64,000 bases of DNA, from assembly GCA_964513845.1 (NCBI GenBank), contig CAZENT010000003.1:70809-134808 (forward strand), written 5' to 3'. This document shows, piece after piece, positions 8,580 to 63,063 of this stretch (within the stretch, counting starts at the first letter, position 1; the number at the start of each line of letters is the position of its first letter). The position numbers and the translations under genes were made by a program. The notes below the pieces were generated by a model. The model had not been told where the DNA came from. It worked only from the letters and a program-made list of their open reading frames with translations, and did no database searches. The DNA is from an uncultured Pseudomonadales bacterium (GTDB lineage: Bacteria > Patescibacteriota > Microgenomatia > UBA1400 > MFAQ01).

Positions 8580-8655
8580 GGCGGGGTAGCTCAGCTGGTT
8601 AGAGCGCCGGATTCATAAACCGGAGGTTTCGCGGGTTCGACTCCCGCCCCCGCTA
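8580..8655 (+). tRNA. tRNA with CAU anticodon (elongator Met or lysidine-modified Ile2; not initiator-like)
   Basis: Hand-folded cloverleaf with a G1-U72 acceptor stem, D arm gctc/gagc, anticodon loop ttCATaa and T arm gcggg-ttcgact-cccgc. It lacks the three G-C pairs of initiator tRNA. A TATAAT-like box lies about 10 nt upstream. Confidence 0.65.
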
Positions 8656-8678
8656 CTTTAGAAGTAAGAAGTTTAAAA

Positions 8679-9677: not shown

Positions 9678-9678
9678 G

Positions 9679-10014: not shown

Positions 10015-10027
10015 GAAGACAAAAAAT

Positions 10028-18419: not shown

Positions 18420-18430
18420 AAAGAAAAATA

Positions 18431-18613
18431 TTTCTCCTTTTCCTCTTTTGTCACTTAGTATTTTATGACGTCGCCAGTAGCGACCGTCGGTTCCTATTTT
18501 CTTGATTCTCGTCCGCTCATCGCGTAGACTCGCAGACAGTAGTCTGACATCAAGAAAATTACGGACGTGCGACTCATTGTCATAAAAACTAATTGCCAAA
18601 CGGAAAGAGAAAT
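18431..18613 (+). repeat. intergenic palindromic repeat, family A copy 1 (MITE/REP-like, nested inverted repeats)
   Basis: About 90% identical to the copies at 21047-21229 and 35215-35394. Terminal inverted repeats (ttgtcacttagtattttatgac / gtcataaaaactaa) enclose nested hairpins gtcgc-N4-5-gcgac, ttttcttgat/atcaagaaaa and cagac-agta-gtctg. Confidence 0.8.
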
Positions 18614-21040: not shown

Positions 21041-21046
21041 AATATT

Positions 21047-21229
21047 CCTTCTTTTCTATTATTTGTCATTTAGTATTTTGTGACGTCGCCAGGGCGACCG
21101 TCGGTTCCTATTTTCTTGATTCTCGTCCGCTCATCGCGTAGACTCGCAGACAGTAGTCTTGCCATCAAGAAAATTACGGACGTGCGACTTATTGTCAAAA
21201 ATACTAAATTGCCAAACGAAAAGAGAAAT
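21047..21229 (+). repeat. intergenic palindromic repeat, family A copy 2
   Basis: Aligns end to end with copies 1 and 3. The hairpin loop differs (gtcgcc-ag-ggcgac) while the stem is kept. Confidence 0.8.
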
Positions 21230-33240: not shown

Positions 33241-33288
33241 GTTATTAACAAATTATTGATACAAGAACTTCGTTGTATCTATTTGAAA

Positions 33289-33390
33289 AACCGAACGCTA
33301 TTTGGCCTGCGCCAAATTCGTTCTTGTTTGCAGTCAAAAACTTTTTGAATACAAAAAGACCGGGCTTTTTGACTTGCGCAATATTTTTCA
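33289..33390 (+). repeat. structured repeat family B, copy 1 (upstream of thrS)
   Basis: Hairpin 1 is atttggc-ctgc-gccaaat. Hairpin 2 has outer stem gtcaaaaa/tttttgac and inner stem ctttttg-aata-caaaaag, with a bulge accgggc and a tail ttgcgcaatattttt. Stems covary with the other copies. Confidence 0.8.
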
Positions 33391-35197: not shown

Positions 35198-35214
35198 AGG
35201 CCTGACAAAATATC

Positions 35215-35394
35215 TCTCCTTTTCCTCTTTTGTCATTTAGTATTTTATGACGTCGCAAAAGCGACCGTCGGTTCCTATTTTCTTGATTCTCGCCCGCTCA
35301 TCGCGTAGGCTCGCAGACAGTAGTCTGAAAATCAAGAAAATTACGGACGTGCGACTCATTGTCAAAAATACTAAATGCCAAACGGAAAGAGAAA
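35215..35394 (+). repeat. intergenic palindromic repeat, family A copy 3
   Basis: About 90% identical to copies 1 and 2, with a hairpin variant gtcgc-aaaa-gcgac. It lies between thrS and tyrS. Confidence 0.8.
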
Positions 35395-35457
35395 TTTTTT
35401 TCTATTGGACTAGTACATAGAAACGAACAATATCGATATAGATGAACCACGCCTAGA

Positions 35458-46325: not shown

Positions 46326-46512
46326 CGTTTCCCTTAACCGGACCTGTCGCCTTATACCTTTTCAAAAACCGGATGCTCTTTCGCCCTGCGCGAAAGCCAT
46401 CCATTACTTGCAGCCGAAAATTCTTAAGACTACTTAAGAAACCAGGCTTTTCGGCTTTGCGCAATATTTTTGAAAAAGTAGTAAGGCTTCGGTCTATATT
46501 GTTTCGGGAAAC
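46326..46512 (+). repeat. structured repeat family B, copy 2 (long form; upstream of leuS)
   Basis: Hairpin 1 is ctttcgc-cctgc-gcgaaag. Hairpin 2 has outer stem gccgaaaa/ttttcggc and inner stem ttcttaag-acta-cttaagaa, with accaggc and ttgcgcaatattttt. It shares 5' and 3' extensions with copy 4. Confidence 0.8.
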
Positions 46513-46540
46513 AAAATATTTTCAAACTAATTATTCGGTG

Positions 46541-46663
46541 ATGTAAGAGCTTGCTCGTTCTCCTTTCCATAATATTATTAAGGAAATGTCGGCCTGCGCT
46601 TCCTCTTATATCATGCGCCCATAATCGCTATCGCTTATTATCGGCTTGATATAAAATAGTGCC
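46541..46663 (+). promoter_or_regulatory. conserved promoter/operator block, family C copy 1 (imperfect palindrome ttccataata..attaaggaa plus TATAAA box), immediately 5' of leuS
   Basis: About 85% identical over about 115 nt to 54449-54566, which precedes the 7TM/ATP-grasp operon. Confidence 0.6.
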
Positions 46664-49158: not shown

Positions 49159-49899
49159 ATGTTTAAAAATAAAAATTCTCTTTACGCACCGCTTTTGGTG
49201 GTGCTTTTGGTGGTGGCCTCGTTCTTCGTGGGCCGATTATCAGCCCAGGTTTCTGCTCTTAAAGGTGGAACTCCGACCGGAACAAATGCAAAAGCTGAGG
49301 TAACTCCAGCGGCCGCAACCGGTTCCAAAATCGCTGTAGCTGAATTGAAAAAAATGGCTAAGGATTTGGGAGTTGATGCAAAATCTTTTGACAAGTGTTT
49401 GGATGATGGCACAATGGCCAGTAAGGTGAGTGCTGAGGCTTCAGAAGGAAAAGGTTTTGGAATTTCCGGAACACCTTCATTCCTAATCAATGGAATATTA
49501 GTAGTTGGTTCTTTGCCACAAGCTGATTTCGAAAAAGTGATCGATGCTGAGCTGAAAAATGGCACGGGAGACAAGGTGGTACTTTCTTCGGGTGGAGAAG
49601 CTTTGAAGCGAGTAGCTAAAATCCCTTATGGTGTTGGATATATCAAAGGAAGTAAAGATGCCAAAATCAAAATCATGGAGTACACCGATTTTGAGTGTCC
49701 ATATTGTAACCGAGCTTTCCCCACAATCGAAGCTCTCTTGACTAAGTATGGCAATCAGATTAGTTTGGAGTATCGCAGTTTCCCTTTAGGTTTCCATGCT
49801 GACGCACAGAAAGCCGCAGAAGCTGCGCTTTGTGCAGGTGAGCAAGGAAAGTTCTGGGAGTTACACGACAAGATGTTTACCGTGATGGCTCAGAAATAA
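49159..49899 (+). CDS. DsbA-like thiol:disulfide oxidoreductase (membrane-anchored)
   Basis: N-terminal TM anchor and a thioredoxin fold with a CPYC active site. Confidence 0.65.
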   Translation: MFKNKNSLYAPLLVVLLVVASFFVGRLSAQVSALKGGTPTGTNAKAEVTPAAATGSKIAVAELKKMAKDLGVDAKSFDKCLDDGTMASKVSAEASEGKGFGISGTPSFLINGILVVGSLPQADFEKVIDAELKNGTGDKVVLSSGGEALKRVAKIPYGVGYIKGSKDAKIKIMEYTDFECPYCNRAFPTIEALLTKYGNQISLEYRSFPLGFHADAQKAAEAALCAGEQGKFWELHDKMFTVMAQK

Positions 49900-50034: not shown

Positions 50035-50721
50035 TTATTGAAGTTTGAAAGTTTCGACTATTTGATCGAACAAATCTGTTTTGAGCGGATTCTTATCTCT
50101 TATTATAATAGCGAGCGTGCCCTTTCCATCATTTATTCTGGTGACGTAAGCTTTTGAGCGGAAGACGCCTGAATCGGTGGAGATGCCTGTGATTAGTGTG
50201 TAGTTTGTACCATTGAGATTTGTTTCGGTAATTGTTTTTTCTTCTAAACTCCAAGATTTAAAATTATTAAGGACTTTTTTCCAAACATCATCTGGGCTAA
50301 TATTCTCGTCAAGAGATAATACATCAATAAAACCCTCGATGGTTATTTTCATTAAGAAATCTTTTTCTATGCCTCCTGGGTAAATGTCGATTAAATTTGA
50401 TTGATCGGTTGCTTTGTTATTTTTAGAATCAAAACTTTCTTCAGAAATATTCCAATTCGAAGGATAACGAATTTCGTACCCTAAAAGATTGTTTTGATAT
50501 GTGGTCCATGATTTAGTGTCATCATGTCTTTTGTAGTTGTCTTCTTGGAATTTTTGTTCTCCAGTATATGGTTGGCCAAAAGATATGTTTTGTAGTTTGC
50601 TGTTTATCTGTTCAAAATTTAATGAATAGACTGCTAAAGAAACCACTAACCCAAAAAACAAAATGCATGATACGGGTGAGTGTTTTTTAATTTTCGTTTT
50701 CATTGATTGTGTAGGTTGCAT
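50035..50721 (-). CDS. hypothetical secreted/membrane-anchored protein
   Basis: N-terminal signal anchor. It is the last gene of a 5-gene minus-strand operon. Confidence 0.4.
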   Translation of the reverse strand: MQPTQSMKTKIKKHSPVSCILFFGLVVSLAVYSLNFEQINSKLQNISFGQPYTGEQKFQEDNYKRHDDTKSWTTYQNNLLGYEIRYPSNWNISEESFDSKNNKATDQSNLIDIYPGGIEKDFLMKITIEGFIDVLSLDENISPDDVWKKVLNNFKSWSLEEKTITETNLNGTNYTLITGISTDSGVFRSKAYVTRINDGKGTLAIIIRDKNPLKTDLFDQIVETFKLQ

Positions 50722-51268
50722 CGTTTGTAGCAGTGTTTAAAACTGTAATGATGGATGCGTTGAGAGGGCTGCCATCATATTTGCGGATATCTTCTACTGT
50801 GGTAATGACAACATTATTTTTAATTTTTAGATCGCTGGGGGAAAGTTTTTTAAAAATTCCTGTTTCCGTCTTTCCAGAAAAAACTGGACTTGATGGGGGA
50901 ACATGAGTAATTGTAGTATCTTCGTTTATGATTAAGGTTATCTTGGTGGTTCCAATTGAAGAGGGGACTTCAATAACAAGTTGTTTTTTTTCGATTTCTG
51001 AAATGACACCTGTAAGTGAGTAAACAGGGTTTGATATTTCTAGATATTTACTGTTGTTAGCTTCAGATAGATTCTCTGTGTTCGAATGTATGCGAGTGGT
51101 GAGAGTCAGATTGTTTCGATACTTGAGGAATAATAGAACAACTGTAATTACTAAAATAATGATTAAAGGAATGGATATTTTTATGATGAGGTCAAAAATA
51201 TCATTTTCCTTGTTTGAGGTTACTGGCTCGTGGGTGGATGGCTGTTGAATTAAGTAATTTTGGTCCAT
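50687..51268 (-). CDS. hypothetical membrane-anchored protein
   Basis: Single TM helix near the N terminus. It overlaps the downstream gene. Confidence 0.4.
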   Translation of the reverse strand: MDQNYLIQQPSTHEPVTSNKENDIFDLIIKISIPLIIILVITVVLLFLKYRNNLTLTTRIHSNTENLSEANNSKYLEISNPVYSLTGVISEIEKKQLVIEVPSSIGTTKITLIINEDTTITHVPPSSPVFSGKTETGIFKKLSPSDLKIKNNVVITTVEDIRKYDGSPLNASIITVLNTATNDATYTINENEN

Positions 51269-51292
51269 TTTTATGTTCTTCTTAATTCAGAT

Positions 51293-51976
51293 TTAATTAC
51301 AGTTGCCAACGATAAGATCTCCCCCTGTAGTGTAATAAACAGCTGTTCCTGTAACCGAAAGAGTACTATAGCGAGCAGCACCAACTGACTTGCCGTAGGT
51401 TCCAGAAGAGATGTTGTGAGCTCCGTAACATTTGTACATGACTACACCTCCACAAGATCTTCCATTGGAGTTTACGTAAGTGTCGGTTTGTATGGTACTA
51501 TCAGACCAGTGAACGGGGTGCCCAGAAAGAGGAACGTCGCAGAAAAGGTTAGTTGTATAACTAAAATAACCAGAGTAATGCCAAACGAGGTCATCTTGTC
51601 CTGCATGTGTGGTCCATGTAGGCCAACGAGGGCTACATGTACCTACTGGATTAACACCGGCAATTCCAACTCTTTTACTACTGACTGTAGATGGAAGATT
51701 GGCGTTGCCATAATCTGAACTGCAGGCACCTCCTGATGTAAAAGTGGTGCAATCTAAGAAGCTTCCCGTGCAAGTTGAGCTATTTGAACAAGTTTCCGGA
51801 CAATCTGAACCACACATATAACAACTGCCACATTGAACATAATTTGATCCACAACAACAAACAATGTCTTGACCACAACCTCCACAAGCTCCTCCGCAAA
51901 TTTCGGCACTTATTGAGGTCGTATTGCTAAGAAATGCTCCTACTGTGATGATGATTGCTAGTATGCGAATCGTCAT
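51293..51976 (-). CDS. secreted cysteine-rich protein (about 20 Cys in the first 60 mature residues)
   Basis: Signal peptide followed by CGGACGGCGQDIVCCCGSNYVQCGSCYMCGSDCPETC..., then a Cys-containing domain of about 120 aa. Confidence 0.45.
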   Translation of the reverse strand: MTIRILAIIITVGAFLSNTTSISAEICGGACGGCGQDIVCCCGSNYVQCGSCYMCGSDCPETCSNSSTCTGSFLDCTTFTSGGACSSDYGNANLPSTVSSKRVGIAGVNPVGTCSPRWPTWTTHAGQDDLVWHYSGYFSYTTNLFCDVPLSGHPVHWSDSTIQTDTYVNSNGRSCGGVVMYKCYGAHNISSGTYGKSVGAARYSTLSVTGTAVYYTTGGDLIVGNCN

Positions 51977-53836
51977 TTAATTAGTTGAATTCTCTAATTC
52001 TTGAAGTCGAAGTTCGAGGTTGTTGAGTCTGTTTTTTAGTTGTTGGTTTTCAATTTTTAGTGAGTCGATTTCTTTCTTGTGATTTTTCATCTCAGCTAGA
52101 AGCAAGACTCCAAGTTTTTCGTAATCGACATTGGCAACATTTCTAGTGCCATCGCTCAGTGTTAGTTCTGGATACACCTTGAACACTTCTTCTGCAATGA
52201 GTCCGAACTGGCGTCCACCGGAAAGAGATTTTCCTAGCTGTTTGTATTTTTCTTTGTAGTCATATGTTTTGGGTTCAAGTTCATAAATTCTACTTGAATC
52301 TAAAACCATTGGAACAATGTTTTCTTTGTAATATTTGGATGATCCTCCTGCATACAAACTGCCGACCACATGAATTTTGTAAGTCGGAGCTGTTGTACCA
52401 ATGCCGACGTTGCCGGTACCGTTTGGCATTATGGCAAAGTGCTGGTTTGTGCCAGTAATGATATCTGAAGAAATTCCTGAAAAAACTACTGATCCAGTTG
52501 TAAATGTGGGTCCGTTGTTGGTAACGATGACTCCAGTTCCTGTTTCATCGCTGATGGAATAGCGCACGTTGGCTGAAGTAATAGTAGTGGTTAATTTGCC
52601 TCCTGTGGTAGTACTAACGAGTCTGTTTGCAGTTATTCCAGAGAAGGTTATAGTTCCTGATGATGTTAAGCCTGTTAAGCCTGTGGCAGCCCCTGCGGAT
52701 GATACATCCCAGTTTGATGAGTTTACCGCGACAGTGTTTGACCCCCCGCCAATACTAATCGCTCCGGTTGAAGTACCAGTGTTGATATTGGTTGCGTAAA
52801 TTGATGAAGAATTTAAATTTATATTTCCATACGAAGCATTAAATGAGCCGACAACGTCTAGTATTGCTTCTGGAGATGCGGTACCAATGCCGACATTGCC
52901 ATTAGCAGTTATTCGTAAGCGTTCGTTACCGCCGGTAGCAAACCACATAGGTGTATTTTCTGTGTTCCAAAATTCAGCGCCTCCCGAATAGTGATAATCA
53001 ATCCACAAGCCATCACTTCCTGTCGATCCAGAGTCACCATTTATGAGTTGAATGGCTGATGAATTAGCACTGGGTGCAAAAATAGTAAGTGGAGTGTTTG
53101 GGCTGGTTGTACCAATGCCGATTTTTCCACCTGTGTAAAGGTTGCCTGTTGCGGGAGAGAGACCTGCTAAACCGTTTTCTGGACAAATGGCACCAGCACA
53201 AATCAGTAGATTCCTGTTTACTGTTTGAATATCTCCAGCGGCGGCAAGAGTATCTGTGACGCCAGAAATGGCGAATCCCATTCGAAGAAGTTCGCGATCA
53301 GAGGTGGCATAAGTTCCAGTTGGGGTATTTACATCGGCATCGGCTATCGTCATGTCACTAATGTTTTCGCGATATGTCCATGTTGCGTCTGGGCAAAGAT
53401 TGGTGGTTTGATCTGCCAAAACCATTTGAATCTGGGTGATTGGAGAATCGAGTTTGAGAGTATTTCCATAGGGGTCTGTGGTGATATTTATTGGGTCGGG
53501 AACTCCGTCTAGGTCAGCATCCTTGACGCATAGTTTGCCTTGAGCTATTTTTCCGCTTGTGTTGATATAGATTATGCCTCGCTCAGTTTCAGTATCCTGA
53601 ATTACTATCTTGTATGGAGAGGGTGGAAAAACAAGAGTTTTGTGTAGAGTGATAGCGGTGCCAGGTGTAATAATCAAATCTCCATCAGCTACTCCGTTAA
53701 CATCTTCATAAACTACACAACTATTGTTAAAAGTAATATTTCCTCCTGAAGTAAAATTACAGTAGTCGTAGGCAGAAATGTGTTTGGGGAAAATGAAAAT
53801 TAGGGAAAGGGAAAGAAAAAAGAATATTTTTTTCAT
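51977..53836 (-). CDS. secreted tail-fibre-like protein with C-terminal intramolecular-chaperone (peptidase S74-like) domain
   Basis: Signal peptide, a long Gly/Thr/Ser/Asn-rich beta-repeat region, then a C terminus ...KENIVPM...YDYK...GLIAEEV...VDYEKLGVLLLAEMKNHKKEIDSLK plus a coiled coil. This is the pattern of phage tail-spike autochaperone domains. Confidence 0.55.
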   Translation of the reverse strand: MKKIFFFLSLSLIFIFPKHISAYDYCNFTSGGNITFNNSCVVYEDVNGVADGDLIITPGTAITLHKTLVFPPSPYKIVIQDTETERGIIYINTSGKIAQGKLCVKDADLDGVPDPINITTDPYGNTLKLDSPITQIQMVLADQTTNLCPDATWTYRENISDMTIADADVNTPTGTYATSDRELLRMGFAISGVTDTLAAAGDIQTVNRNLLICAGAICPENGLAGLSPATGNLYTGGKIGIGTTSPNTPLTIFAPSANSSAIQLINGDSGSTGSDGLWIDYHYSGGAEFWNTENTPMWFATGGNERLRITANGNVGIGTASPEAILDVVGSFNASYGNINLNSSSIYATNINTGTSTGAISIGGGSNTVAVNSSNWDVSSAGAATGLTGLTSSGTITFSGITANRLVSTTTGGKLTTTITSANVRYSISDETGTGVIVTNNGPTFTTGSVVFSGISSDIITGTNQHFAIMPNGTGNVGIGTTAPTYKIHVVGSLYAGGSSKYYKENIVPMVLDSSRIYELEPKTYDYKEKYKQLGKSLSGGRQFGLIAEEVFKVYPELTLSDGTRNVANVDYEKLGVLLLAEMKNHKKEIDSLKIENQQLKNRLNNLELRLQELENSTN

Positions 53837-53838
53837 AG

Positions 53839-54369
53839 TTATTTGATTAACATAGGCTGGGAGGTTTTGTTGCCCAACTCGGTAGTAATTTCAAAAGAGA
53901 CATTGTATATTTTTTCGTAGGTGTCCGAGAATTGATATGTGGTGGACCATATACCATTGGTGGTGGAACCTGAGATTAGCTTCATGGGGTGAGAGGTGGT
54001 TTGGGCATCAGTGTTGAGAGTGAGGCTGACAGTGTTGATAGGCTCTTTGCTTTGAATGGTAGCGGAAACGGTTTGTTTGGTGTCTTTGGCTGGATCAAGA
54101 GGGTCATAGGTGATGGAAGTGACGGTCGAATCTCCCCAAGATCCTTGAACATTGTAAGTTTGTTTGCCGTGAGGAAGGATAAGGTAGGGAGTGGGAGCGG
54201 CGACAGTGCCAGGGGGTAGCTTTTTATTTGTAATTGGAGTGGTTTTTGTAAGAGTCGGGGTGGGTAATTTCCAACCAAAAGGATTGGCAAGAAGAAGGAA
54301 AAAACCTAAAAGACCAAAAGAGACTCCTAAAATTACGTAGAGAACGGGAGATATTTTTCCTGAGTTCAT
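53839..54369 (-). CDS. hypothetical secreted protein (first gene of the operon)
   Basis: N-terminal TM/signal segment, then a T/S/P-rich region. Confidence 0.4.
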   Translation of the reverse strand: MNSGKISPVLYVILGVSFGLLGFFLLLANPFGWKLPTPTLTKTTPITNKKLPPGTVAAPTPYLILPHGKQTYNVQGSWGDSTVTSITYDPLDPAKDTKQTVSATIQSKEPINTVSLTLNTDAQTTSHPMKLISGSTTNGIWSTTYQFSDTYEKIYNVSFEITTELGNKTSQPMLIK

Positions 54370-54448
54370 AGCCTAGTATCAATATAGAGAAAATTGTGAT
54401 AATAGTCAATTATTTTGGGGGAGAGAAATGCTTTGCTCGATACCTAGT

Positions 54449-54566
54449 ATAAGAGCTTGCTCGTCTTCTTTTCCATAATAATTATTATGGAAATATCATC
54501 CTGTGCTTCCTCTTATATCTGCTCCTATAATTGCTTTACCATTATAGGATTGATATAATACAGGCT
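54449..54566 (+). promoter_or_regulatory. conserved promoter/operator block, family C copy 2 (perfect 23-nt palindrome ttccataataa-t-ttattatggaa plus TATAAT box) in a divergent promoter region
   Basis: About 85% identical to 46541-46663. It sits between the minus-strand secreted-protein operon and the plus-strand 7TM/ATP-grasp operon. Confidence 0.6.
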
Positions 54567-55451
54567 ATGAAAAAAGCATTGATGGGACTTATTTTTTTGA
54601 TGGTTGTCGGGGCATTTTTTGGGACACCAAAATCATGGGCTATTTCTGAAACTGCTTTACCTAAAATAGTACCTACTGAAACAGCAACAGTGTCGGCAGA
54701 GACAGCTCCTGTAAAGGAAATTGACTTAACTGTGCCTAAACAAGAGGGTGATCGTTTGACTAAACTGATGAATGGACAAAAATTATCAGGATGGTGGGGC
54801 AAGGATGTTTTGAAACTGGCTATGCGTAAAGCTGTGTCTGAAGGAGTGTCTCCCAATACCCTGGTACTGCTTTTCTTATTTCCTCTAGTGGCAGCTTTGG
54901 TGGCTTTTTCTCGCCAAGTGGTCGGTGTGTCTGGATTTGGCATGATTACACCTGCCTTACTTTCGGTGGCCTTTTTGTCTACCGGAGGCTTGGTGGGCTT
55001 AGTGCTTCTGTTCTTTATTCTTGGCGTGGCAACATTGGGAAGATTGTTAATCAAGAAAGTCAAAGTGCCATATTTTCCAAAACTAGCTATTCTGATCTGG
55101 GTGGTTTCAATGGCTGTTTTGGTTTTGCTTTTGATGTCGCCGATGATTGGCCTTGAAAGACTAATGAGCGTGGGAATTTTTCCCATTATGCTGTTTGTGC
55201 TTTTGGCTGAAACTTTTATCGAAGCTCAGATTACCAGAAGTTTGGCCACTTCAATGTGGATGACAATCGAAACAGTGATTTTGGCTTTGATTGCTTATAA
55301 ATTGATGAGCGCTCCTTGGATTCAGTCTCAGGTATTGCTTCATCCGGAAATTACCGTAGTCGGAATTTTGGGTCTGGACTATTTGATCGGTACTTATAAG
55401 GGATTGAGATTAATGGAGATTTGGAGATTTCGTAAATTATTGAGAAAATAA
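54567..55451 (+). CDS. polytopic (about 7 TM) membrane protein with N-terminal signal peptide, associated with an ATP-grasp operon (7TM-transglutaminase-like partner?)
   Basis: MKKALMGLIFLMVVGAFFGTPKSWA signal, an extracytoplasmic region of about 90 aa, then seven hydrophobic helices. Genomic context matches the 7TM component of RimK-like amidoligase systems. Confidence 0.45.
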   Translation: MKKALMGLIFLMVVGAFFGTPKSWAISETALPKIVPTETATVSAETAPVKEIDLTVPKQEGDRLTKLMNGQKLSGWWGKDVLKLAMRKAVSEGVSPNTLVLLFLFPLVAALVAFSRQVVGVSGFGMITPALLSVAFLSTGGLVGLVLLFFILGVATLGRLLIKKVKVPYFPKLAILIWVVSMAVLVLLLMSPMIGLERLMSVGIFPIMLFVLLAETFIEAQITRSLATSMWMTIETVILALIAYKLMSAPWIQSQVLLHPEITVVGILGLDYLIGTYKGLRLMEIWRFRKLLRK

Positions 55452-55464
55452 TATTGAGATTTTT

Positions 55465-56775
55465 ATGATTAGACTGAACGACATACTAGGGCTTAATGCT
55501 CGATCGGCTGACTATTTGCTTTTAAACAAAAAGTCCGCCCGAAAAAGAGCAGACGACAAACTCTTGACAAAGAGAATGCTGAAACGCGCCCATGTAGCTC
55601 ACCCTAGGCTGTTGGGGGTGCTGAAAGATGCTCATGAAGTGAGAGATTTTGACTGGAGCAAACTAACCGGAGGATTTGCCGTAAAACCAGTTCAGGGTTT
55701 TGGCGGACAGGGAATAGTGCTCGTGAAGCGCCAGGCTAAAGAAGAGGGAAAATTTTGGACTGTAGACGGAAAGAAAATAAGTATAGAAGATCTCGTGCTG
55801 CACACTGTAGATATTGTCGAGGGGAAATATTCACACAATAATTTACCTGACAAAGCGATGATCGAAGAGAGAATTACCATTCATCCTAAGTTTAAAAAAT
55901 TAGCTGTAGGTGGCGCTCCTGATGTGAGAGTAATTGTTTTTAACAATATTCCTGTGATGGCGATGTTACGCTTACCAACTGAAGAAAGTGCCGGAAAGGC
56001 CAATCTTCATCAGGGTGCTATTGGCCTGGGAATTGATATGGCAACAGGGATTACAACCTATGGAGTATATAAAAATGGCCAGATAAAGTATTTTCCGGAT
56101 ACAAATAAAAAGGTAAACGGGATTGCTATTCCTTACTGGAACAAAATTCTTCTGATGGCAGTAAAAACACAAAAAGTGTCGCACTTGCCATATTTGTCGG
56201 TGGACATGCTTATAGATGAGAAAAAAGGACCTGTGGTTTTGGAGTTAAACGATCAACCAGGACTTTCTATCCAGCTTGCGAATATGGCCGGACTCCGCAG
56301 AAGACTTCAAAGAGTTGAAGGGTTGGAAGTTGACAATGTGGAAAAGGGGGTAAAGATTGGAAAAGCATTGTTTGCCAGTAAATTTGCCAATAGGGTACAG
56401 TTTTTGGGAGAAGACAAACCAGTATTGGGAATATTTGAAACAGCTCAGATTAAGACGGGAAAAAAGAAGTGGACTGAGGTGCGATGCAAGATCGATACCG
56501 GTGCTAGAAGCACTTCAATTGATCAAAGTTTGGCTTTGGAATTGGGCTTGCTCCGCCCCGAAAATGTGCTTTGGACAAAGAAAGTTAAAAATTCTCTGGG
56601 TTTTGAGGAGAGAACAATCATCGGGATTACGATGAAAATAAAGGGAAAGACGATAAGGACACGAGCTAGCCTTACCAATAGGGCAGAGCTAAGACGCCAG
56701 TTTTTGATTGGTAGACGAGATTTGAAAGATTTTGTGGTTAATCCGGGGTTGATTAGAATTAGAAAGAAAAAATGA
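55465..56775 (+). CDS. ATP-grasp (alpha-L-glutamate ligase-related, RimK-like) fused to a C-terminal retropepsin-like aspartyl peptidase domain
   Basis: The N-terminal ~300 aa have the RimK-related ATP-grasp layout (MIRLNDILGLNARSADYLLLN...ADDKLLTK...). The C-terminal ~130 aa carry KIDTGARSTSID (D-T-G-A catalytic motif) as in RimB/PF05618-type peptidases. Confidence 0.5.
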   Translation: MIRLNDILGLNARSADYLLLNKKSARKRADDKLLTKRMLKRAHVAHPRLLGVLKDAHEVRDFDWSKLTGGFAVKPVQGFGGQGIVLVKRQAKEEGKFWTVDGKKISIEDLVLHTVDIVEGKYSHNNLPDKAMIEERITIHPKFKKLAVGGAPDVRVIVFNNIPVMAMLRLPTEESAGKANLHQGAIGLGIDMATGITTYGVYKNGQIKYFPDTNKKVNGIAIPYWNKILLMAVKTQKVSHLPYLSVDMLIDEKKGPVVLELNDQPGLSIQLANMAGLRRRLQRVEGLEVDNVEKGVKIGKALFASKFANRVQFLGEDKPVLGIFETAQIKTGKKKWTEVRCKIDTGARSTSIDQSLALELGLLRPENVLWTKKVKNSLGFEERTIIGITMKIKGKTIRTRASLTNRAELRRQFLIGRRDLKDFVVNPGLIRIRKKK

Positions 56776-56823
56776 TAGGAAAAAATATTTTTGGATATTT
56801 CTTAAATTTTCTTCCATACAAAA

Positions 56824-56910
56824 AACCGGACGCTATTTTGCCTGCGCAAAATCCGTCCTTACTATCAGCGAAATTTTCTTTGAATACAAAGAAACCGGGC
56901 AATTTCGCTT
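56824..56910 (+). repeat. structured repeat family B, copy 3 (inside the ATP-grasp operon)
   Basis: Hairpin 1 is attttgc-ctgc-gcaaaat. Hairpin 2 has outer stem agcgaaatt/aatttcgct and inner stem ttctttg-aata-caaagaa, with accgggc and ttgcgcgatatttttt. Confidence 0.8.
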
Positions 56911-57036
56911 TGCGCGATATTTTTTGTATCGGACGAAAATTACGAAATGTAAAATATTTTCTTAATTGGGAGTGCACTTCAAAACATAATATATTATTGA
57001 ATAATTTATCAAGCAGATTAGTGTTAAATTAAGTAT

Positions 57037-57951
57037 ATGAAAATAGCATACCTGCACAGAATTACTTTCGACGAGAGTGAACAGAGATTTTTGGAAGAAG
57101 CCAAAAATCTAGGGATTGAGCTGGTGTTGATCAAATACAGACAGCTAAGAATGGTTGATGGAAAAATTCTTTTTGAAGACACTGATATGAAAGACTTCGA
57201 TGGCTGGTTTTTCCGCTCTGTGGGGTCTGAACTGGAGTGGAGTAAGCTCTTACAGCTTTATGCCAAGAAACACAATATTCCTGTCGTTGACGAGTATTTG
57301 AAAACCGAAGGACCTTTGCGCCGTTTTAAAAGCGTGATGACTTGGCAACTGGTTGAGGCAGGAGTGAAGTATCCAAAATCTCAGTATATCGAGACTTGGA
57401 ATGACTTAGAGAAGTTTTTGAGAGAGGCAAGTTTTCCTTTGATTGTGAAACTTTCTCAGGGTGGAAGACATGGAATGGGAACTTTTTGGATTAGAGAGTT
57501 TGAAGATTTGAACAAACTAAAAGTAATTTTGGAAGAGAGAAAAGAAAAAGCCAAAAAGAAGGGTGAAAAAGTGCCGATGATTAGGGGATTTTTGGTTCAA
57601 GAATATATTGAGAATGATGGAGATTTCCGAGTGGTGACGGTTGGATATAAATGTATTGGAGGATTTAAAAGACAGGTAAAAGAGGAAAAATTGATTTTGA
57701 ACAAGAGTCAGGGCAATTCAATTGGATTAAAAGAAGTGCCTGAAGCTGTGGTGAGAACCGCAGAGGCTGCGGCAAGGGCATTGGAAGTGGAAGTGGCCGG
57801 GACGGATTTGGTTATCAGTAAGAAAACCGGAGAAGTTTACATAATTGAAGTGAACGAAGCACCGCAGTTTAAGGTGTTTGAAAAGAGAACTAAGATTAAT
57901 GCGCCAAGAAAAATCTTGGAGTACTGTATAGAAAAATTTCGAAAATTATGA
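57037..57951 (+). CDS. RimK-family ATP-grasp ligase (alpha-L-glutamate ligase-like), paralog 1
   Basis: MKIAYL start, ATP-grasp B/C domain motifs (IVKLSQGGRHGMGTF, VQEYIE, AGTDLV...EVNEAPQF), at 304 aa. Confidence 0.75.
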   Translation: MKIAYLHRITFDESEQRFLEEAKNLGIELVLIKYRQLRMVDGKILFEDTDMKDFDGWFFRSVGSELEWSKLLQLYAKKHNIPVVDEYLKTEGPLRRFKSVMTWQLVEAGVKYPKSQYIETWNDLEKFLREASFPLIVKLSQGGRHGMGTFWIREFEDLNKLKVILEERKEKAKKKGEKVPMIRGFLVQEYIENDGDFRVVTVGYKCIGGFKRQVKEEKLILNKSQGNSIGLKEVPEAVVRTAEAAARALEVEVAGTDLVISKKTGEVYIIEVNEAPQFKVFEKRTKINAPRKILEYCIEKFRKL

Positions 57952-57999
57952 AAATGAATATTTCCGTATTCCTGCCGCACTCACTAACAGGGCTTATCA

Positions 58000-58126
58000 C
58001 CCTAGTTCTTTGTTGGCCACCGATAATTTGTCGCTTCCTGCGAGCGACAATCATCTCGATTCTCGACTTGAATTTCCACTTCGTGGAACCAAGCAATTCA
58101 AGTCTGCGAAGCGTGGCACAAAGAAC
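58000..58126 (+). repeat. 127-nt palindromic element, family D copy 1 (intergenic, between the two RimK genes)
   Basis: Identical at 126 of 127 nt to 60696-60822. Contains hairpins gtcgc-ttcctgcga-gcgac and ttccac-ttc-gtggaa. Confidence 0.85.
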
Positions 58127-58191
58127 AATGGTTCACGTCCTTTATGATATTCGTGCGTATGAAATAGTTGGAAAATATTCATAATTAATAT

Positions 58192-59106
58192 ATGAAAAAA
58201 GTATTAATACTGACCAGATTTAGAGGGGAGTATGAACCAAGGCGATTGGCTGAGGAAGCTGCTGCTTTTGGATATGAAGTGGATAGAGTGAATTATGAAC
58301 ATGTACGATTGGGAGTAAGCCCTTTGGGTAAACCGGTAATTGATCTAATGACCGGGAAGAAGCTGGAAGAGTACGACTTGGTAATTCCTAGGGCAGCAAC
58401 AAAACGAGGCGGTGAATCGATGTTGGGAGTGAAATCGGTAATTTTGGAGTATATCGAAAAACTGGTAGATAACAAGCCAACAGTAATCAATGGTGAAAGT
58501 TTTCGATTTTATCCTTTGATGGGAAAACTGGAACAGGGAATTCTTTTGGCTCAGGAGGGATTGTCGGTGATTCCTTTTGCTTCATTTAATGGTCATCGGG
58601 GATGGAAAAGATATCTGGAAATTCTGGCAAAAAGAAAAAATGCCTTTGTTCCAGTGATGGTAAAGGCTCGTTTTGGCAGTCATGGAAAGAACGTAAAACT
58701 GGCCGAAAACATTGAAAGATTGATAAAACTATCGCAAAGATATAGTGAGGGAGATGTATTGATTCAACCCGTGATTGTGGTTCGCAGATGGTATCGAGTT
58801 CTGGTACTTAATGGAGAGGTTTTGGGAATGATGAAACATAGACAGAAAAATAAGTTTCAGACTGAGGCAATTCAGACAGAAACAGCTTTACTGAAACCAA
58901 AATTTACCAAAGAACAAATGGAGGAGTTGAAAATTTTGGCCATTAGAGCGGCGAAAGTGCTTAAGGCTGATTTTGCCGGACTAGACATCGCATGGGATGA
59001 AAACTCAAAAGGGTGGAGAATTTTCGAAGTAAACAGAACAGCTCAGTTCCGATGGTTTGAGAAAGCTTATCCGGAAATAAACGTGGCACAGGCGATGGTT
59101 TTGTAA
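58192..59106 (+). CDS. RimK-family ATP-grasp ligase, paralog 2
   Basis: ATP-grasp motifs (VMVKARFGSHGKNV, IQPVI, AGLDIAWDE...FEVNRTAQF), at 304 aa. Confidence 0.75.
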   Translation: MKKVLILTRFRGEYEPRRLAEEAAAFGYEVDRVNYEHVRLGVSPLGKPVIDLMTGKKLEEYDLVIPRAATKRGGESMLGVKSVILEYIEKLVDNKPTVINGESFRFYPLMGKLEQGILLAQEGLSVIPFASFNGHRGWKRYLEILAKRKNAFVPVMVKARFGSHGKNVKLAENIERLIKLSQRYSEGDVLIQPVIVVRRWYRVLVLNGEVLGMMKHRQKNKFQTEAIQTETALLKPKFTKEQMEELKILAIRAAKVLKADFAGLDIAWDENSKGWRIFEVNRTAQFRWFEKAYPEINVAQAMVL

Positions 59107-59125
59107 AATATGATACGATTTCTTT

Positions 59126-59293
59126 ATGAGACAGAAATCGACTGATATTGTTGAGGGTCAAGATTACCATCAGCAGTATGCTCAATCTTCCGATGAAATA
59201 AAAATGAGTAAATGGGAAAAAGCGGAGAAAGCAAAAAGGGGTGAGAGGCAGGGGTTGAGTAAGTTTCGGGTGGGTAAAATTGTAAAAAAATAA
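59126..59293 (+). CDS. possible small ORF (55 aa), rich in D/E/K/S/T, downstream of the ATP-grasp genes
   Basis: ATG...TAA frame MRQKSTDIVEGQDYHQQYAQSSDEIKMSKWEKAEKAKRGERQGLSKFRVGKIVKK. There is no clear SD and it is below the ORF-track size cutoff. Confidence 0.2.
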   Translation: MRQKSTDIVEGQDYHQQYAQSSDEIKMSKWEKAEKAKRGERQGLSKFRVGKIVKK

Positions 59294-59373: not shown

Positions 59374-59547
59374 GACCTGTCGCCTTATACCTTTTCAAAA
59401 ACCGGATGCTCTTTCGCCCTGCGCGAAAGCCATCCATTACTTGCAGCCAAAAATTCTTGAGACTACTCAAGAAACCAGGCTTTTTGGCTTTGCGCAATAT
59501 TTTTGAAAAAGTATTAAGGCTCCGGTCTAGATTGTTTTCGGGAAACG
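59374..59547 (+). repeat. structured repeat family B, copy 4 (long form)
   Basis: Near-identical to copy 2, with compensatory changes in both stems of hairpin 2 (outer gccaaaaa/tttttggc, inner ttcttgag-acta-ctcaagaa). Confidence 0.8.
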
Positions 59548-59635: not shown

Positions 59636-61201
59636 ATGAAAGGATGGGTGATTTTTTTTGTTGCTTTGGCGATTTATGGAGTGAGTGTTTTTGGAGAGTT
59701 TGTGCAGGACGATTTTGTCGTGATTAAAACTGCTCCAGATATGGGAAGTGTGAGTGCTTTGGGTGCAGTATTTACACGACCATATTATTTTATGAATGAG
59801 GGTGGGGGATCTGGAGCGTATCGACCGATAACGAGCCTTAGTTTTTACTTGAATACTTTGTTGACCGGCAAAGAACCTTGGGGATTTAGACTGGTAAATA
59901 TATTGCTTTATGCTGGAGTGTGTGTTTTGGTGTTTGAGCTGTTGAAAAAATACACCACAACAAAGATGGCTTTTTGGGGAACAATCGTATTTACAGTATT
60001 GCCAATACATACAGAAGCGGTAAATAATATTGTGGGGAGGGCGGAAATACTATCACTGGGATTGTTTTTGTTGGCTGTTTTGGCACAGATGAGAAGCAGG
60101 TGGGAGCTGTCGGCTATACTATTTTTGTTGGCGTTACTGACAAAAGAAATCGCAATTGTGGGCTTGCCGATTTTAATTTGTATTTTGATTTGGGGAAGGG
60201 AAAATAAAGATACAAAAAGGGGAGTTGTTTTCTTTTATATTTTGGTCACAGGATGTTATCTGATTTTACGAACGATGGTGTTGGGCAATGAATCAATGGG
60301 GAATGAAGCAACGATAGTGGAAAACCCATTAAAGTTTTTACCAACAAACCAGCGAGTAATGAATGCCTTTTCGCTGGTTCCGTTTGGAGTTGGGAAAATG
60401 ATATTTCCATGGCATCTTAGTTACGATTATTCCTTTAGTCAAATAAAGTTGGCGACCAGCTGGTTTGATATTCGAGTATTGTTGGGGATTTCTATGTCAC
60501 TTTTGTCTATTGGAAGTTTGTTGACAAAACTGAGAAAAAATAAGCTGTGGATCATGGGGCAAGCATTGTTTTGGGGGTCGCTGATGGTAACGGGAAATTT
60601 TTTGTTTGCTGTGGGGACTATTTTTGGGGAAAGGCTTTGGTTTTGGACGAGTTTAGGAATGGTTTTGATGATTACCTCACTGTTTCCCTTTCGTTCTAAT
60701 TCTTTGTTGGCCACCGATAATTTGTCGCTTCCTGCGAGCGACAATCATCTCGATTCTCGACTTGAATTTCCACTTCGTGGAACCAAGCAATTCAAGTCTG
60801 CGAAGCGTGGCACAAAGAACAAGAACTTCAAGGAACAATTCTTGGTAATCATTATCATGATGCTGGCTGGGAGAAGCTTTGTGCGGAATTTGGATTGGTT
60901 GTCGCAGGAAAGATTGTTTATTCATGATGCAAATTATGTAACGGGAAGTGTGATGGCGCAGACAAATAAAGCAGCGATGCTACTGATTAATAATGATTTT
61001 GAAGGAGGGAATCTGGCACTTGAGAAAGCAGAAAAGATCTATCCGAATTATCCGATGCTGATAAATAATCGAGGAGCGTATTACTTACATTTAGAGGAAT
61101 ACGACAAGGCTAGAGAAAAATTTGAAGAGTGTTTGAGGGTAAACCCAAGATTTTCTTTCTGTGAAAGTAATCTTATGTTGGTGAAGATTAACAAAGATTG
61201 A
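59636..61201 (+). CDS. TMTC/PMT-like polytopic membrane glycosyltransferase-like protein with C-terminal TPR repeats, carrying an in-frame family D insertion
   Basis: N-terminal FVQDDFVVI and YRPITSLSFYLN motifs (the DUF1736 / TMTC-PMT-like signature), about 9 TM helices and a C-terminal TPR (YPNYPMLINNRGAYYLHLEEYDKAREKFEECLRVNP). Residues LLATDNLSLPASDNHLDSRLEFPLRGTKQFKSAKRGTKN are encoded by the 127-nt repeat. Confidence 0.5.
   Translation: MKGWVIFFVALAIYGVSVFGEFVQDDFVVIKTAPDMGSVSALGAVFTRPYYFMNEGGGSGAYRPITSLSFYLNTLLTGKEPWGFRLVNILLYAGVCVLVFELLKKYTTTKMAFWGTIVFTVLPIHTEAVNNIVGRAEILSLGLFLLAVLAQMRSRWELSAILFLLALLTKEIAIVGLPILICILIWGRENKDTKRGVVFFYILVTGCYLILRTMVLGNESMGNEATIVENPLKFLPTNQRVMNAFSLVPFGVGKMIFPWHLSYDYSFSQIKLATSWFDIRVLLGISMSLLSIGSLLTKLRKNKLWIMGQALFWGSLMVTGNFLFAVGTIFGERLWFWTSLGMVLMITSLFPFRSNSLLATDNLSLPASDNHLDSRLEFPLRGTKQFKSAKRGTKNKNFKEQFLVIIIMMLAGRSFVRNLDWLSQERLFIHDANYVTGSVMAQTNKAAMLLINNDFEGGNLALEKAEKIYPNYPMLINNRGAYYLHLEEYDKAREKFEECLRVNPRFSFCESNLMLVKINKD
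60696..60822 (+). mobile_element. family D palindromic element copy 2, inserted in frame within the coding region 59636-61201
   Basis: A 127-nt stretch matching 58000-58126 at 126 positions. The host ORF reads through it without a stop, between the TM domain and the TPR domain. Confidence 0.8.
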
Positions 61202-61782: not shown

Positions 61783-63063
61783 ATGCTCGTGAATCGCAAA
61801 AAAGTAGCTGTGGGAATATCAGGTGGGGTGGATTCCGCCGTTGCGGCATTGCTCTTGAAAGAACAGGGTTATGATGTGACAGCGGTTCACTTGTATTGCT
61901 GGCCACCAAAAAGTGAGATAGAAAAAGATGGAATTTCTCGTGAGGAGTGGATAAAAAAGAACGGCTGTCGAGCTGATGAGGATAGGACTTATGCTCTGAA
62001 AACAGCCCTGGAGCTAGGAATACCCTTTAAGGTTTTGGATTTTTCGGAGGAGTATAACCAAAAAGTAATTAAGTATTTTTATGACGAGTATGAGGCTGGA
62101 CGAACGCCGAACCCTGATGTGATATGTAACTCGGAAATAAAATTTGGGATGTTTTTGGATTGGGCTTTGGAAAATGGATTTGACTATATTGCGACGGGGC
62201 ATTATGCACGACTAATCTGTGATAATTCAAGTCTGTCGACCACATCTCTTTTAGAAAACGGCAACGTCGTTTTGCCAGCGCAAAACGCGACCTGTTGCGC
62301 GTCAAAAAATCCTGTGAATACACAGGAACCAAGCTTTTTTGCCTTGCGCAATCTTTCTAAAACAGAAGATGGTCTCCGACCTTCTTATCACTTGATTATT
62401 CCTGCGGACAAGCATAAGGACCAGACGTATTTTTTATGGAAATTGACGCAGAAGGAGTTGGAACACACACTTTTCCCTTTGGGTGAGTTGGTTAAAAATG
62501 AAGTGAGAGAAAAAGCTGAAAAAGCTAATCTTTCGGTGGCTAAGCGTAAGGATTCGCAGGGAATTTGTTTTGTGGGAAATGTGGAGGCGAGAGAGTTTCT
62601 GGCCAGAAGACTTAAGGAAAATCCAGGTAAAGTTCTCGATATTCATGGGAAGGAAATTGGAAAACACGATGGGGTTTGGTTTTATACCATAGGACAACGC
62701 GGAGGCTGGGAAATAACGCCTGATGCGCAGAGAAAATTTGCCGGAAACGGTGTAACACCGGTGTTTTATGTGGTGTCTAAGGATGCGAAGATAAATATTT
62801 TGACCGTGGCTGAAGAAAATGAAGCTGGAGGAGATCAATTTGAAGTAGGCGAGATAAACAAAATATCAAAAACAAAATGGAAATTGGACCATCTGATTGT
62901 GCGTATTAGGCACGGGGGAGAGCTGATTGGAGCTAGGGGTATGGCAACTAAAGAAGGAATGCTGGTAATACTGGATAAAGAAATGAGAGGCATTGCGAGT
63001 GGGCAGAGTGCGGTGTTTTACGGTGAGGATGGAGAGTGTTTGGGTGGAGGAGTGATTGCGTAG
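61783..63063 (+). CDS. mnmA: tRNA-specific 2-thiouridylase MnmA, with a roughly 50-aa insertion encoded by a family B-like element
   Basis: VAVGISGGVDSAV PP-loop, ATGHYAR, DQTYFLW and C-terminal SAVFYGEDGECLGGGVI. The GHY...SYFLY spacing is about 50 aa longer than canonical MnmA. Confidence 0.8.
   Translation: MLVNRKKVAVGISGGVDSAVAALLLKEQGYDVTAVHLYCWPPKSEIEKDGISREEWIKKNGCRADEDRTYALKTALELGIPFKVLDFSEEYNQKVIKYFYDEYEAGRTPNPDVICNSEIKFGMFLDWALENGFDYIATGHYARLICDNSSLSTTSLLENGNVVLPAQNATCCASKNPVNTQEPSFFALRNLSKTEDGLRPSYHLIIPADKHKDQTYFLWKLTQKELEHTLFPLGELVKNEVREKAEKANLSVAKRKDSQGICFVGNVEAREFLARRLKENPGKVLDIHGKEIGKHDGVWFYTIGQRGGWEITPDAQRKFAGNGVTPVFYVVSKDAKINILTVAEENEAGGDQFEVGEINKISKTKWKLDHLIVRIRHGGELIGARGMATKEGMLVILDKEMRGIASGQSAVFYGEDGECLGGGVIA
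62255..62360 (+). mobile_element. family B-like palindromic element embedded in frame inside mnmA
   Basis: gtcaaaaa-atcctgtg-aata-cacagga-accaagc-ttttttgcc-ttgcgcaatctttct copies the family B hairpin 2 architecture and tail. The inner stem has fully compensated substitutions. It is translated as ...VLPAQNATCCASKNPVNTQEPSFFALRNLSKTE... Confidence 0.7.

Follow-up and report, generated by a model that had tools for sequence, protein, structure and literature searches.

Why is a single locus with three ATP-dependent peptide ligases consistently retained by bacteria whose genomes measure about 1 Mb? The question is raised by a gene cluster on the plus strand of contig CAZENT010000003.1 (assembly GCA_964513845.1), which was deposited under the name of an uncultured Pseudomonadales bacterium and is placed by GTDB in the Microgenomatia. 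We analysed 64,000 nucleotides (nt) of this contig, positions 70,809 to 134,808 (the window; all coordinates below are window positions unless another locus is named). The cluster lies at 54.4-59.3 kb and encodes a membrane protein, a ligase-retropepsin fusion protein and two further ligases. We favour, with slightly better than even confidence, the view that it is the Microgenomates variant, in a Collierbacteria-like member of the Candidate Phyla Radiation (CPR), of the Rlo/Rim class of ligase-retropepsin systems, working by the mechanism proposed below. Its most likely function, judged from sequence, would be to synthesize and trim an acidic peptide chain while docked at the membrane. Because genomes this small keep three ligases together, the product appears to matter to these cells.

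The features of the cluster are as follows (aa, amino acids; 7TM, seven-transmembrane).

54436 to 54566, plus strand: promoter-like 5' cassette ("family C" in the first-pass annotation), with about 130 nt of similarity to the leuS upstream region
54567 to 55451, plus strand: RloB-like 7TM membrane protein, 294 aa (PF14402)
55465 to 56775, plus strand: fusion protein, 436 aa, in which a conserved helix (residues 292-308) follows an RloC-type ATP-grasp ligase and precedes a retropepsin
55516 to 56319, plus strand: ATP-grasp ligase domain of the fusion, residues 18-285 (PF14397, TIGR02291)
56422 to 56745, plus strand: retropepsin domain of the fusion, residues about 320-427, with catalytic D344-T-G-A at nt 56494-56505
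56808 to 56935, no strand assigned: palindromic repeat element between the fusion gene and RK1 (repeat family D3)
57037 to 57951, plus strand: RimK-like ATP-grasp ligase 1 (RK1), 304 aa (PF08443)
58002 to 58128, no strand assigned: palindromic repeat element between RK1 and RK2, a copy of 60696-60822
58192 to 59106, plus strand: RimK-like ATP-grasp ligase 2 (RK2), 304 aa, with the RimK pre-ATP-grasp N-domain (PF08443 and PF18030)
59126 to 59293, plus strand: conserved small open reading frame (ORF), 55 aa, basic, of no known family

The first-pass annotation had described four proteins here, and all four long ORFs are present at the positions it gave. The region that it delimited begins with promoter and 5' sequence (54449-54566) and ends, at 59293, with the stop codon of the 55-aa ORF, which it had not described and which may be a fifth gene of the cluster. 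Two of the intergenic gaps are wide, 262 nt between the fusion gene and RK1 and 241 nt between RK1 and RK2, and each holds a copy of a palindromic repeat. We compared the cluster with 86 related loci (numbered with the prefix L). In Collierbacteria-clade relatives the gap between the fusion gene and RK1 is between a few bases and about 180 nt, and in relatives generally the cluster genes abut or overlap. The spacing is 1-9 nt in L005; in CP055307, a complete Woesebacteria genome, 4 nt separate the 7TM gene from the fusion gene, and there is stop-to-start overlap among the fusion gene and both ligase genes. Since the genes of relatives abut or overlap, the gaps are secondary. The CP055307 locus (L062) also has a gene for a 75-aa MerR/HTH_17 regulator (5837-6064 of that locus) directly upstream of the 7TM gene.

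Cluster proteins, their linkage and their natural fusions

The N-terminal ~300 aa of the fusion protein had been assigned to the ATP-grasp ligases, and both profile and structure comparisons bear this out. Residues 18-285 match PF14397 (ATPgrasp_ST) with E = 7.9e-67 (225.8 bits; Pfam cutoff 31.4), and residues 3-291 match positions 8-297 of the 317 positions of TIGR02291, 'alpha-L-glutamate ligase-like', with E = 1.2e-83. An AlphaFold2 model made with 28 homologues has a mean predicted local distance difference test (pLDDT) score of 77.4 and consists of two folded domains, mostly at pLDDT 80-94, separated by a low-confidence linker that contains the conserved helix. In Foldseek searches the ligase domain is closest to ArgX (3vpb, 1e-10) and RimK (5zk6, 4iwx and 7qys), and LysX and cyanophycin synthetase are also found (1e-10 to 1e-8). 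K74, R155, D247, E260 and N262 are invariant in the 28 homologues; we take these to be the standard ATP- and Mg-binding positions of ATP-grasp enzymes.

The C-terminal part of the fusion is a retropepsin. Residues 367-436 match PF05618 (E = 7.2e-8, 32.9 bits; Pfam cutoff 27), generic models of retroviral-type aspartyl proteases also match this part, and a profile of the domain finds the RloA-family structures 9g59 (2.4e-7) and 9g58 (4e-6), followed by 2pma. These are RloA2 of P. aeruginosa, RloA of P. fluorescens and Lpg0085, respectively. Modelled alone, the domain reaches a pLDDT of 87, and its best Foldseek matches are again 2pma, 9g58 and 9g59 (about 2e-6), with foamy-virus, Ddi1, HIV, EIAV and HTLV proteases next (E = 3e-5 to 1e-3, TM-scores 0.5-0.77). 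The fold is beta-rich and single-lobed, and the hallmark motifs D-T-G-A and I-G-R-R-D-L are conserved. The D-T-G-A motif had already been noticed in the first-pass annotation; it is invariant in 28 homologues (D344, T345, G346, A347), as are K342, R383, R406 and G416-R-x-D-L. Structure prediction thus confirms that the fusion has two domains, and the alignment of homologues that its DTG site is conserved.

Which substrate such a domain might cut is suggested by its conserved basic residues. In a profile alignment K342, R383 and R406 of the fusion correspond to K46, R114 and R137 of RloA; as a check on the numbering, the spacings D28-R94 and D28-R117 in 9g58 equal D48-R114 and D48-R137. In a published model the three RloA residues contact octa-glutamate, and the substitutions R114A and R137A abolish activity and complementation (PMC12239564). 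The retropepsin domain here has a net charge of +18 over 119 aa, and its homologues range from +6 to +25. Because of its fold, its catalytic motif, its glutamate-binding residues and its charge, we consider that the protease part of the fusion is very likely active and specific for polyanions. Against the curated RimB model (NF052261 equivalog) it scores 13.2 bits (cutoff 200), although it shares RimB's Pfam family, PF05618, and also resembles RimB in having no signal peptide. No signal peptide was seen on the fusion by eye, the N-terminus being hydrophilic and carrying the ATP-grasp domain, and no second retropepsin is encoded within the window.

The 7TM gene most likely starts at ATG 54567 and not at TTG 54531, because homologues are 280-295 aa long and because the upstream block that is shared with leuS aligns up to the ATG of both genes. 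The ORF (54531/54567-55451) matches PF14402, 7TM_transglut, over residues 111-303 (E = 2.9e-25, 89.7 bits; Pfam cutoff 25). According to Pfam, this 7TM module is typically fused to an inactive transglutaminase. Here the match to the RloB model NF052267 (NCBIfam; 61 bits, cutoff 900) covers profile positions 313-507 of 508 only, that is the C-terminal 195 positions; the protein has no transglutaminase-like domain, and only the membrane half of RloB is present. The hydropathy profile shows, after a signal peptide, about 70 poorly conserved aa on the outside, about seven helices and a basic C-terminal tail, and fits a topology with the N-terminus outside and the C-terminus inside. The signal peptide and the roughly seven helices given in the first-pass annotation therefore agree with hydropathy and with PF14402. 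The predicted cytoplasmic tail carries the motif Y-x-G-L-R-x-x-E-x-x-R-F, which is conserved in 79 locus homologues.

The Pfam RimK domain, PF08443, is found in all three ligases of the cluster, in the fusion as well as in RK1 (E = 4.8e-21) and RK2 (E = 4.8e-14), and RK2 additionally has PF18030 (Rimk_N, E = 5.3e-8). The earlier description of RK1 and RK2 as two RimK-family ligases of 304 aa each was therefore right, and the profile searches as a whole match the RimK/ATP-grasp, PF05618 and 7TM families as assigned. Membership of any curated subfamily is another matter. The scores against the RimK family model TIGR00768 are 96.4 (RK1), 72.7 (RK2) and 53.4 bits (fusion), below the cutoff of 143.4, and those against the E. 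coli RimK equivalog NF007764 are 39.2, 31.6 and 20.7 bits, below 331; for LysX, TIGR02144, RK1 has 76.4 bits (cutoff 275.6). RK1 and RK2 fall below every curated NCBIfam cutoff for the RimK family, E. coli RimK, LysX, MptN and CofF. Their closest solved relatives are ArgX for RK1 (3vpb, 2.6e-10) and E. coli RimK for RK2 (5zct, 6.6e-6). They align with each other by BLASTP in short stretches only (best 15/39 identical), and neither gives a significant BLASTP alignment with the ligase of the fusion. In each of them the Lys/Gly-rich loop, an Arg, an Asp and the E-x-N motif are retained across the orthologues compared, which number 21 for RK1 (loop, D-F-R-V, A-G-x-D and E-V-N) and 18 for RK2 (catalytic motifs). 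The best description of RK1 and RK2 is as divergent RimK/LysX-superfamily members, specific to this system.

The 55-aa ORF has no Pfam match. Homologues of 53-55 aa lie downstream of RK2 in at least eight Collierbacteria-like genomes (L019, L012, L016, L009, L005/L006, L024 and L008), and tblastn finds the ORF in 9 of the 86 loci, all of the Collierbacteria clade. Conservation is at the two ends, N-terminal MRQKST.VY..FHNQF and C-terminal EGQS.YR....KK, with the overall motif MR[QH]K[SN]T..Y...H[ND]QF...EG[QL]S.[FY]R....KK. The exact sequence is already recorded at NCBI as a called gene product, on a 136.8-kb contig that also carries an identical copy of the fusion protein. None of the five cluster proteins matches an anti-phage defence family in PADLOC, and a reading of the cluster as a defence system was rejected on this ground.

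The genes do co-occur across related genomes. Among the 86 related loci, 82 extend far enough upstream to be informative, and in every one of them the fusion gene has the 7TM gene directly upstream. Downstream sequence of at least 2.5 kb is available in 79 loci, and 73 of these carry RimK-like genes within the first 5 kb of it: 44 have two such genes, 23 have one and 6 have three. The latter count is based on ORF calling and phmmer, with additional Woesebacteria queries, as plain tblastn undercounted RimK-like neighbours in distant genomes.

The fusion architecture itself is found in at least 120 clusters at 60% identity or more, and the named relatives at 75-79% identity are Candidatus Collierbacteria. 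A scan of one genome per species gave at least 600 pattern matches, of which 564 were confirmed as relatives, so that the fusion is present in at least 564 species-level Microgenomates genomes. The best 80 of these matches are from Collier-, Woese-, Blackburn- and Shapirobacteria and other Microgenomates/Patescibacteria. With at least 564 genomes carrying it, the ligase-retropepsin fusion is the standard form of the ligase across a large CPR clade. The first-pass annotation was correct in recognising the fusion, and what it regarded as unusual is the normal state across the Microgenomates.

Several records labelled 'uncultured Pseudomonadales' or 'Gammaproteobacteria' (L010, L012, L014, L030, L072 and others) carry the Microgenomates-type locus with the same gene order, as does one record each labelled 'Spirochaetia', 'Bathyarchaeia' and 'Woesearchaeota'. 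One such record is 810 kb long and labelled chromosome 1. These taxonomic labels are probably wrong and the records mislabelled bins.

Natural fusions provide further evidence on how the components are arranged. A search of 1.84 billion representative proteins with a retropepsin-domain profile gave 1666 matches at E <= 1e-3 (435 at E <= 1e-10), and we read the architectures of the best 150 of these (individual proteins are numbered with the prefix P). Thirty-four are ATPgrasp_ST-retropepsin fusions or fragments of such fusions. Two proteins extend the ligase-retropepsin fusion by a YdjC-like or a MATCAP-like domain (P0357, P0360). Another 14 have an N-terminal hydrophobic segment, a retropepsin and a 7TM module, and include proteins of Herpetosiphonaceae (HSH83314.1) and other Chloroflexota. 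The same 150 include P0253, with two tandem retropepsins before the 7TM module, P0356, a retropepsin-RimK fusion without a signal peptide, and P0386, in which retropepsin, 7TM module and ATPgrasp_ST form a single chain of 657 aa. The tail motif, here Y-x-G-L-R-L-x-E-x-x-R-F, ends the four 7TM-containing fusions that we read, as it does the 79 locus homologues, and in P0386 the tail runs almost directly into the N-terminus of the ligase. These proteins support the view that ligase, 7TM protein and retropepsin form one physical unit, in which the ligase would be seated on the 7TM protein's cytoplasmic tail. A location of the protease on either side of the membrane, depending on the lineage, is also suggested, the outside position being read by eye from the hydrophobic segments. 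The pattern would be most easily explained if the product were present on both sides of the membrane.

RimK-like ligases can also be joined to each other. L084, one of the loci counted above with a single RimK-like gene, encodes a 613-aa protein with two ATP-grasp domains (8305-10143 of that locus), and L086 has a 612-aa protein at the position matching this double RimK-like protein. That a natural fusion exists suggests that RK1 and RK2 act together. In L079 (8305-10068) a RimK is fused to DUF3541. P0305 is a class I lysyl-tRNA synthetase with a retropepsin domain, which may be an artefact of assembly or gene calling.

The putative product of the cluster

We propose the following mechanism. 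The RloC-type ATP-grasp domain would act in the cytoplasm and use ATP to make alpha-linked acidic chains, most likely of glutamate, either free or on an acceptor. The retropepsin domains of two protomers would pair to give an active site with two aspartates, and the pair would cut long acidic runs and so set the length of the chain; it may also stimulate the ligase. Both trimming and stimulation are proposed because RimB does both for RimK. The 7TM protein would dock the ligase by way of its conserved cytoplasmic tail and would either move the product across the membrane or couple its synthesis to the state of the envelope. RK1 and RK2 might work as a pair that primes, extends or diversifies the chain.

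Several observations count against this proposal. The TIGR02291 score of the fusion, 280.8 bits, is below the curated cutoff of 314.2, and the presumed glutamate specificity of the RloC-type ligase comes from homology. No transporter family or motif was recognised in the 7TM protein. With the retropepsin attached to a cytoplasmic ligase and free of a signal peptide, cleavage would take place elsewhere than in Pseudomonas, and export is not implied by the locus. Finally, 6 of the 79 loci have no RimK-like gene nearby, and both RimK-like genes of L003 and the single one of L027 are inverted, still adjacent to the cluster. Because of these loci, RK1 and RK2 may be a separable module.

A Rim-like system that adds tails to a protein, in which the 7TM protein regulates only and nothing is exported, is the alternative that survives best, and we regard it as possible but rather doubtful. 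It is consistent with a cytoplasmic protease that is coupled to a ligase, as RimB is to RimK, with the RimK N-domain of RK2 and its closest solved relative, E. coli RimK, and with the existence of P0356. Yet no ligase of the cluster reaches the RimK equivalog or family cutoffs, and the fused ligase is strictly partnered by a membrane protein. A protein to be tailed was not apparent either: no ORF of at least 45 aa near the cluster ends in an acidic tail, the sole example in the window (22244-23107) being unrelated and far away, and a tblastn search for rpsF within the 64-kb window, with an approximate E. coli S6 query, gave nothing significant.

The system could instead modify the cell wall or a surface polymer, adding amino acids to peptidoglycan stems, teichoic-like polymers or glycans, with the 7TM protein as flippase or scaffold; this we consider unlikely. 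The Pfam label of PF14397, 'sugar-transfer associated', points in this direction, as do the cell-shape and ampicillin phenotypes of Pseudomonas rlo mutants. So does gene neighbourhood, with Ddl, a Mur ligase and alanine racemase beside the cluster in L003 and a PMT/TMTC-like glycosyltransferase after it here and in L005, L008, L016, L019, L020 and L024, but over the 86 loci the Ddl, Mur and glycosyltransferase neighbours are not conserved. The matches to Ddl and pseudomurein ligase are marginal (12-22 bits), and the retained polyglutamate-binding residues point to a peptide chain as the substrate of the retropepsin.

A role in a small-molecule pathway, with a LysX/ArgX-type amino-group carrier or MptN/CofF-type glutamylation of a cofactor, is very unlikely. 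It is suggested by RK1, whose closest solved relative is ArgX 3vpb and which matches the NCBIfam models of LysX (2e-21), MptN (7e-20) and CofF (3e-13), all with scores far under the curated cutoffs. The 64 kb hold no LysW-like zinc-ribbon carrier with an acidic C-terminus, and no LysZ/Y/J/K-type genes lie beside the cluster in the loci of which we inspected gene calls or ORFs. For the cofactor variant, neither F420 nor methanopterin is known to be made by CPR genomes. A reading with a LysW carrier was rejected, as the carrier is absent from the window and the TIGR02144 match is below its cutoff.

[quoted passage not shown]

We return to an acidic chain that would be made and trimmed at the membrane, of which a more far-reaching version may be considered. 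The Microgenomates module might be a maker of non-ribosomal acidic peptide polymers or heteropolymers, in which three ligases and a length-setting protease are mounted on a minimal 7TM protein and the product is delivered to the envelope. We think this improbable, and offer it as speculation. If true, it would mean an envelope or osmoprotective polymer of CPR bacteria that has not been described before, and the permutations among the natural fusions would give the working topology of Rlo systems, with synthesis inside, passage by way of the 7TM protein and trimming on either side.

Promoter cassette, repeats and neighbouring genes

The cassette upstream of the 7TM gene (54436-54566) contains a perfect 24-nt palindrome, TTTCCATAATAATTATTATGGAAA, at 54470-54493, a TATAAT box at 54526-54531 and the sequence TGATATAAT at 54551-54559. 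Over about 130 nt, including the -10-like boxes, it is 84% identical to 46530-46663, upstream of leuS. There are two copies of the cassette in the window and two of its flanking motif; the palindrome has a single copy, allowing up to three mismatches. In the 86 related loci neither short motif is matched exactly upstream of the 7TM gene. The flanking motif has no exact match in these loci, and the other motif has one only in L015 and L019, before mnmA. The cassette is thus a dispersed, mobile or duplicated promoter-like element. With just these two copies in the window, and no exact motif match at the 7TM genes of relatives, its presence at leuS, which had been read as a shared 'family C operator', does not count as evidence for co-regulation.

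Related cassettes precede mnmA at L015 10270-10420 and L019 12674-12830, and the box TAAGAGCTTGCTCGT is invariant across the copies before leuS, the 7TM gene and mnmA. The palindrome arms change together between genomes (CCATAAT/ATTATGG, CGATAAT/ATTATCG, CAATAAC/GTTATTG). The palindrome could be either a hairpin or the site of a dimeric regulator.

Dispersed palindromic repeats of 90-170 nt, which form long hairpins (z = -4.3 to -6.3), are mostly intergenic, and two lie in frame within genes. Those inside the cluster belong to two families. D3 has copies at 33286-33375, 56821-56910 (the one in the cluster, z = -4.3) and 62255-62344, and the repeat at 58002-58128 (z = -6.3) is 99% identical to 60696-60822, inside the ORF of a PMT/TPR glycosyltransferase. 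A further pair is at 46341-46511 and 59374-59544. Compared with their orthologues, MnmA is longer by about 45 aa (aa 146-190, nt 62218-62352) and the PMT/TPR glycosyltransferase by 40 aa (aa 351-390, nt 60686-60805) because of the in-frame copies, which resemble the Rickettsia palindromic elements. Separate intergenic repeats of about 190 nt occur in three copies with 78-97% identity, at 18425-18613, 21040-21228 and 35207-35395 (D2, D4, D6, D7). In the whole window Rfam finds two tRNAs only, and the intergenic repeats match no RNA family.

Divergent from the cluster, on the minus strand, a block at 50035-54369 encodes five secreted or membrane-anchored proteins with visible N-terminal hydrophobic segments. 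One of them, of 619 aa, has a Peptidase_S74 (endosialidase/tail-fibre chaperone) domain at its C-terminus, and another, of 227 aa, is Cys-rich. The divergent operon of secreted and surface proteins that had been reported is therefore real, and it is specific to a few lineages: among the related loci only four, L019, L016 and L005/L006, share it, and in most relatives a DsbA-like gene stands before the 7TM gene in its place. The DsbA-like protein of the window (49159-49899) has its profile matches in swapped order, with residues 61-128 similar to the C-terminal positions 122-190 of PF01323 and residues 162-240 to the N-terminal positions 7-87 of PF13462, which suggests a circular permutation or a rearranged thioredoxin fold.

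A complete Microgenomates genome is reported to show strong strand asymmetry (PMC7143001). In the window (1-64000) the guanine-cytosine skew stays above zero throughout, at 0.085-0.395 per 2-kb bin, and the plus strand carries most of the long ORFs.

Comparison with known systems

The trio of ATP-grasp ligase, retropepsin and 7TM protein was reportedly first predicted by Iyer et al. in 2009. The first-pass annotation was correct, as far as domain families go, in linking the cluster to this predicted trio with PF05618 and to RimK/RimB. Its description of the trio as functionally uncharacterised no longer holds, since the trio is the rloABC operon of P. aeruginosa (PMC12239564). There the RloA retropepsins cleave runs of at least eight Glu, the loss of all three RloA paralogues causes sensitivity to low osmolarity, and deletion of rloB or rloC suppresses this sensitivity (PMC12239564). 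The system affects tolerance of low osmolarity, biofilm formation, cell shape and antibiotic sensitivity (PMC12239564).

The cluster has the same families in one operon as rloABC of P. aeruginosa and P. fluorescens, ATPgrasp_ST/TIGR02291 (RloC, with the TIGR02291 score below its cutoff), PF14402 (RloB) and PF05618 (RloA), and the three components are encoded together in 82/82 loci and in natural double and triple fusions. The catalytic D-T-G-A and the Lys and two Arg that bind polyglutamate are kept. The differences are that the retropepsin is secreted in Pseudomonas, whereas here it has no signal peptide and forms the C-terminus of a cytoplasmic ligase; that the outer, inactive transglutaminase domain of RloB is absent, leaving 294 aa against a profile of 508 positions; that the trio is accompanied by two additional RimK-like ligases and a small ORF; and that the host is a CPR bacterium and not a gammaproteobacterium. 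In the 2025 description 96% of RloB hits were from Proteobacteria (Lormand et al., mBio 2025, PMC12239564). Our data indicate that Rlo-type systems reach beyond the Proteobacteria into CPR bacteria and Chloroflexota.

In the RimK-RimB(-RimA) system (PMC11957791, PMC7343187) a cytoplasmic retropepsin is likewise coupled to an ATP-grasp alpha-L-glutamate ligase. RimK glutamylates S6 and makes free poly-alpha-glutamate, and the retropepsin RimB, a dimer, both binds and stimulates RimK and cleaves runs of glutamate (PMC11957791). A dimeric protease specific for glutamate runs is also what we propose, by analogy, for the retropepsin of the fusion, and RK2 has the N-domain and ATP-grasp architecture of RimK. 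The ligase that is coupled to the protease belongs here, however, to the RloC branch (RimK and RimB equivalog scores of 13-39 bits, cutoffs 200-331), the 7TM partner is obligatory and there is no RimA.

The LysX/ArgX-LysW systems share the ATP-grasp subfamily, ArgX being both the best structural match of the N-terminal domain of the fusion and the best solved relative of RK1. They differ in that the cluster has no LysW carrier and no downstream genes of a lysine or arginine pathway, and its scores are below the cutoff. PgsBCA/CapBCA is a membrane-associated complex with an ATP-dependent amide ligase that makes and exports polyglutamate and has a dedicated depolymerase. This is a functional analogy only, as PgsB has a Mur-ligase-like fold, the linkage is gamma and no component is homologous to the cluster proteins. 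Klebsiella CfmP (PMC13419641) is TupA-like and of a different ATP-grasp family, and was set aside as a comparison.

The retropepsin-7TM(-ATP-grasp) fusions of Chloroflexota and uncultured bacteria have a retropepsin of the same clade, the same 7TM module and tail and the same ligase family. In these fusions the retropepsin precedes the 7TM block and should be outside, in contrast to its place on the cytoplasmic ligase here, and it occupies the position that the transglutaminase-like domain of RloB has in Pseudomonas. Among these related arrangements, the Microgenomates version, without a transglutaminase-like domain and with the protease already attached to the ligase, is a simpler form of the system to reconstitute.

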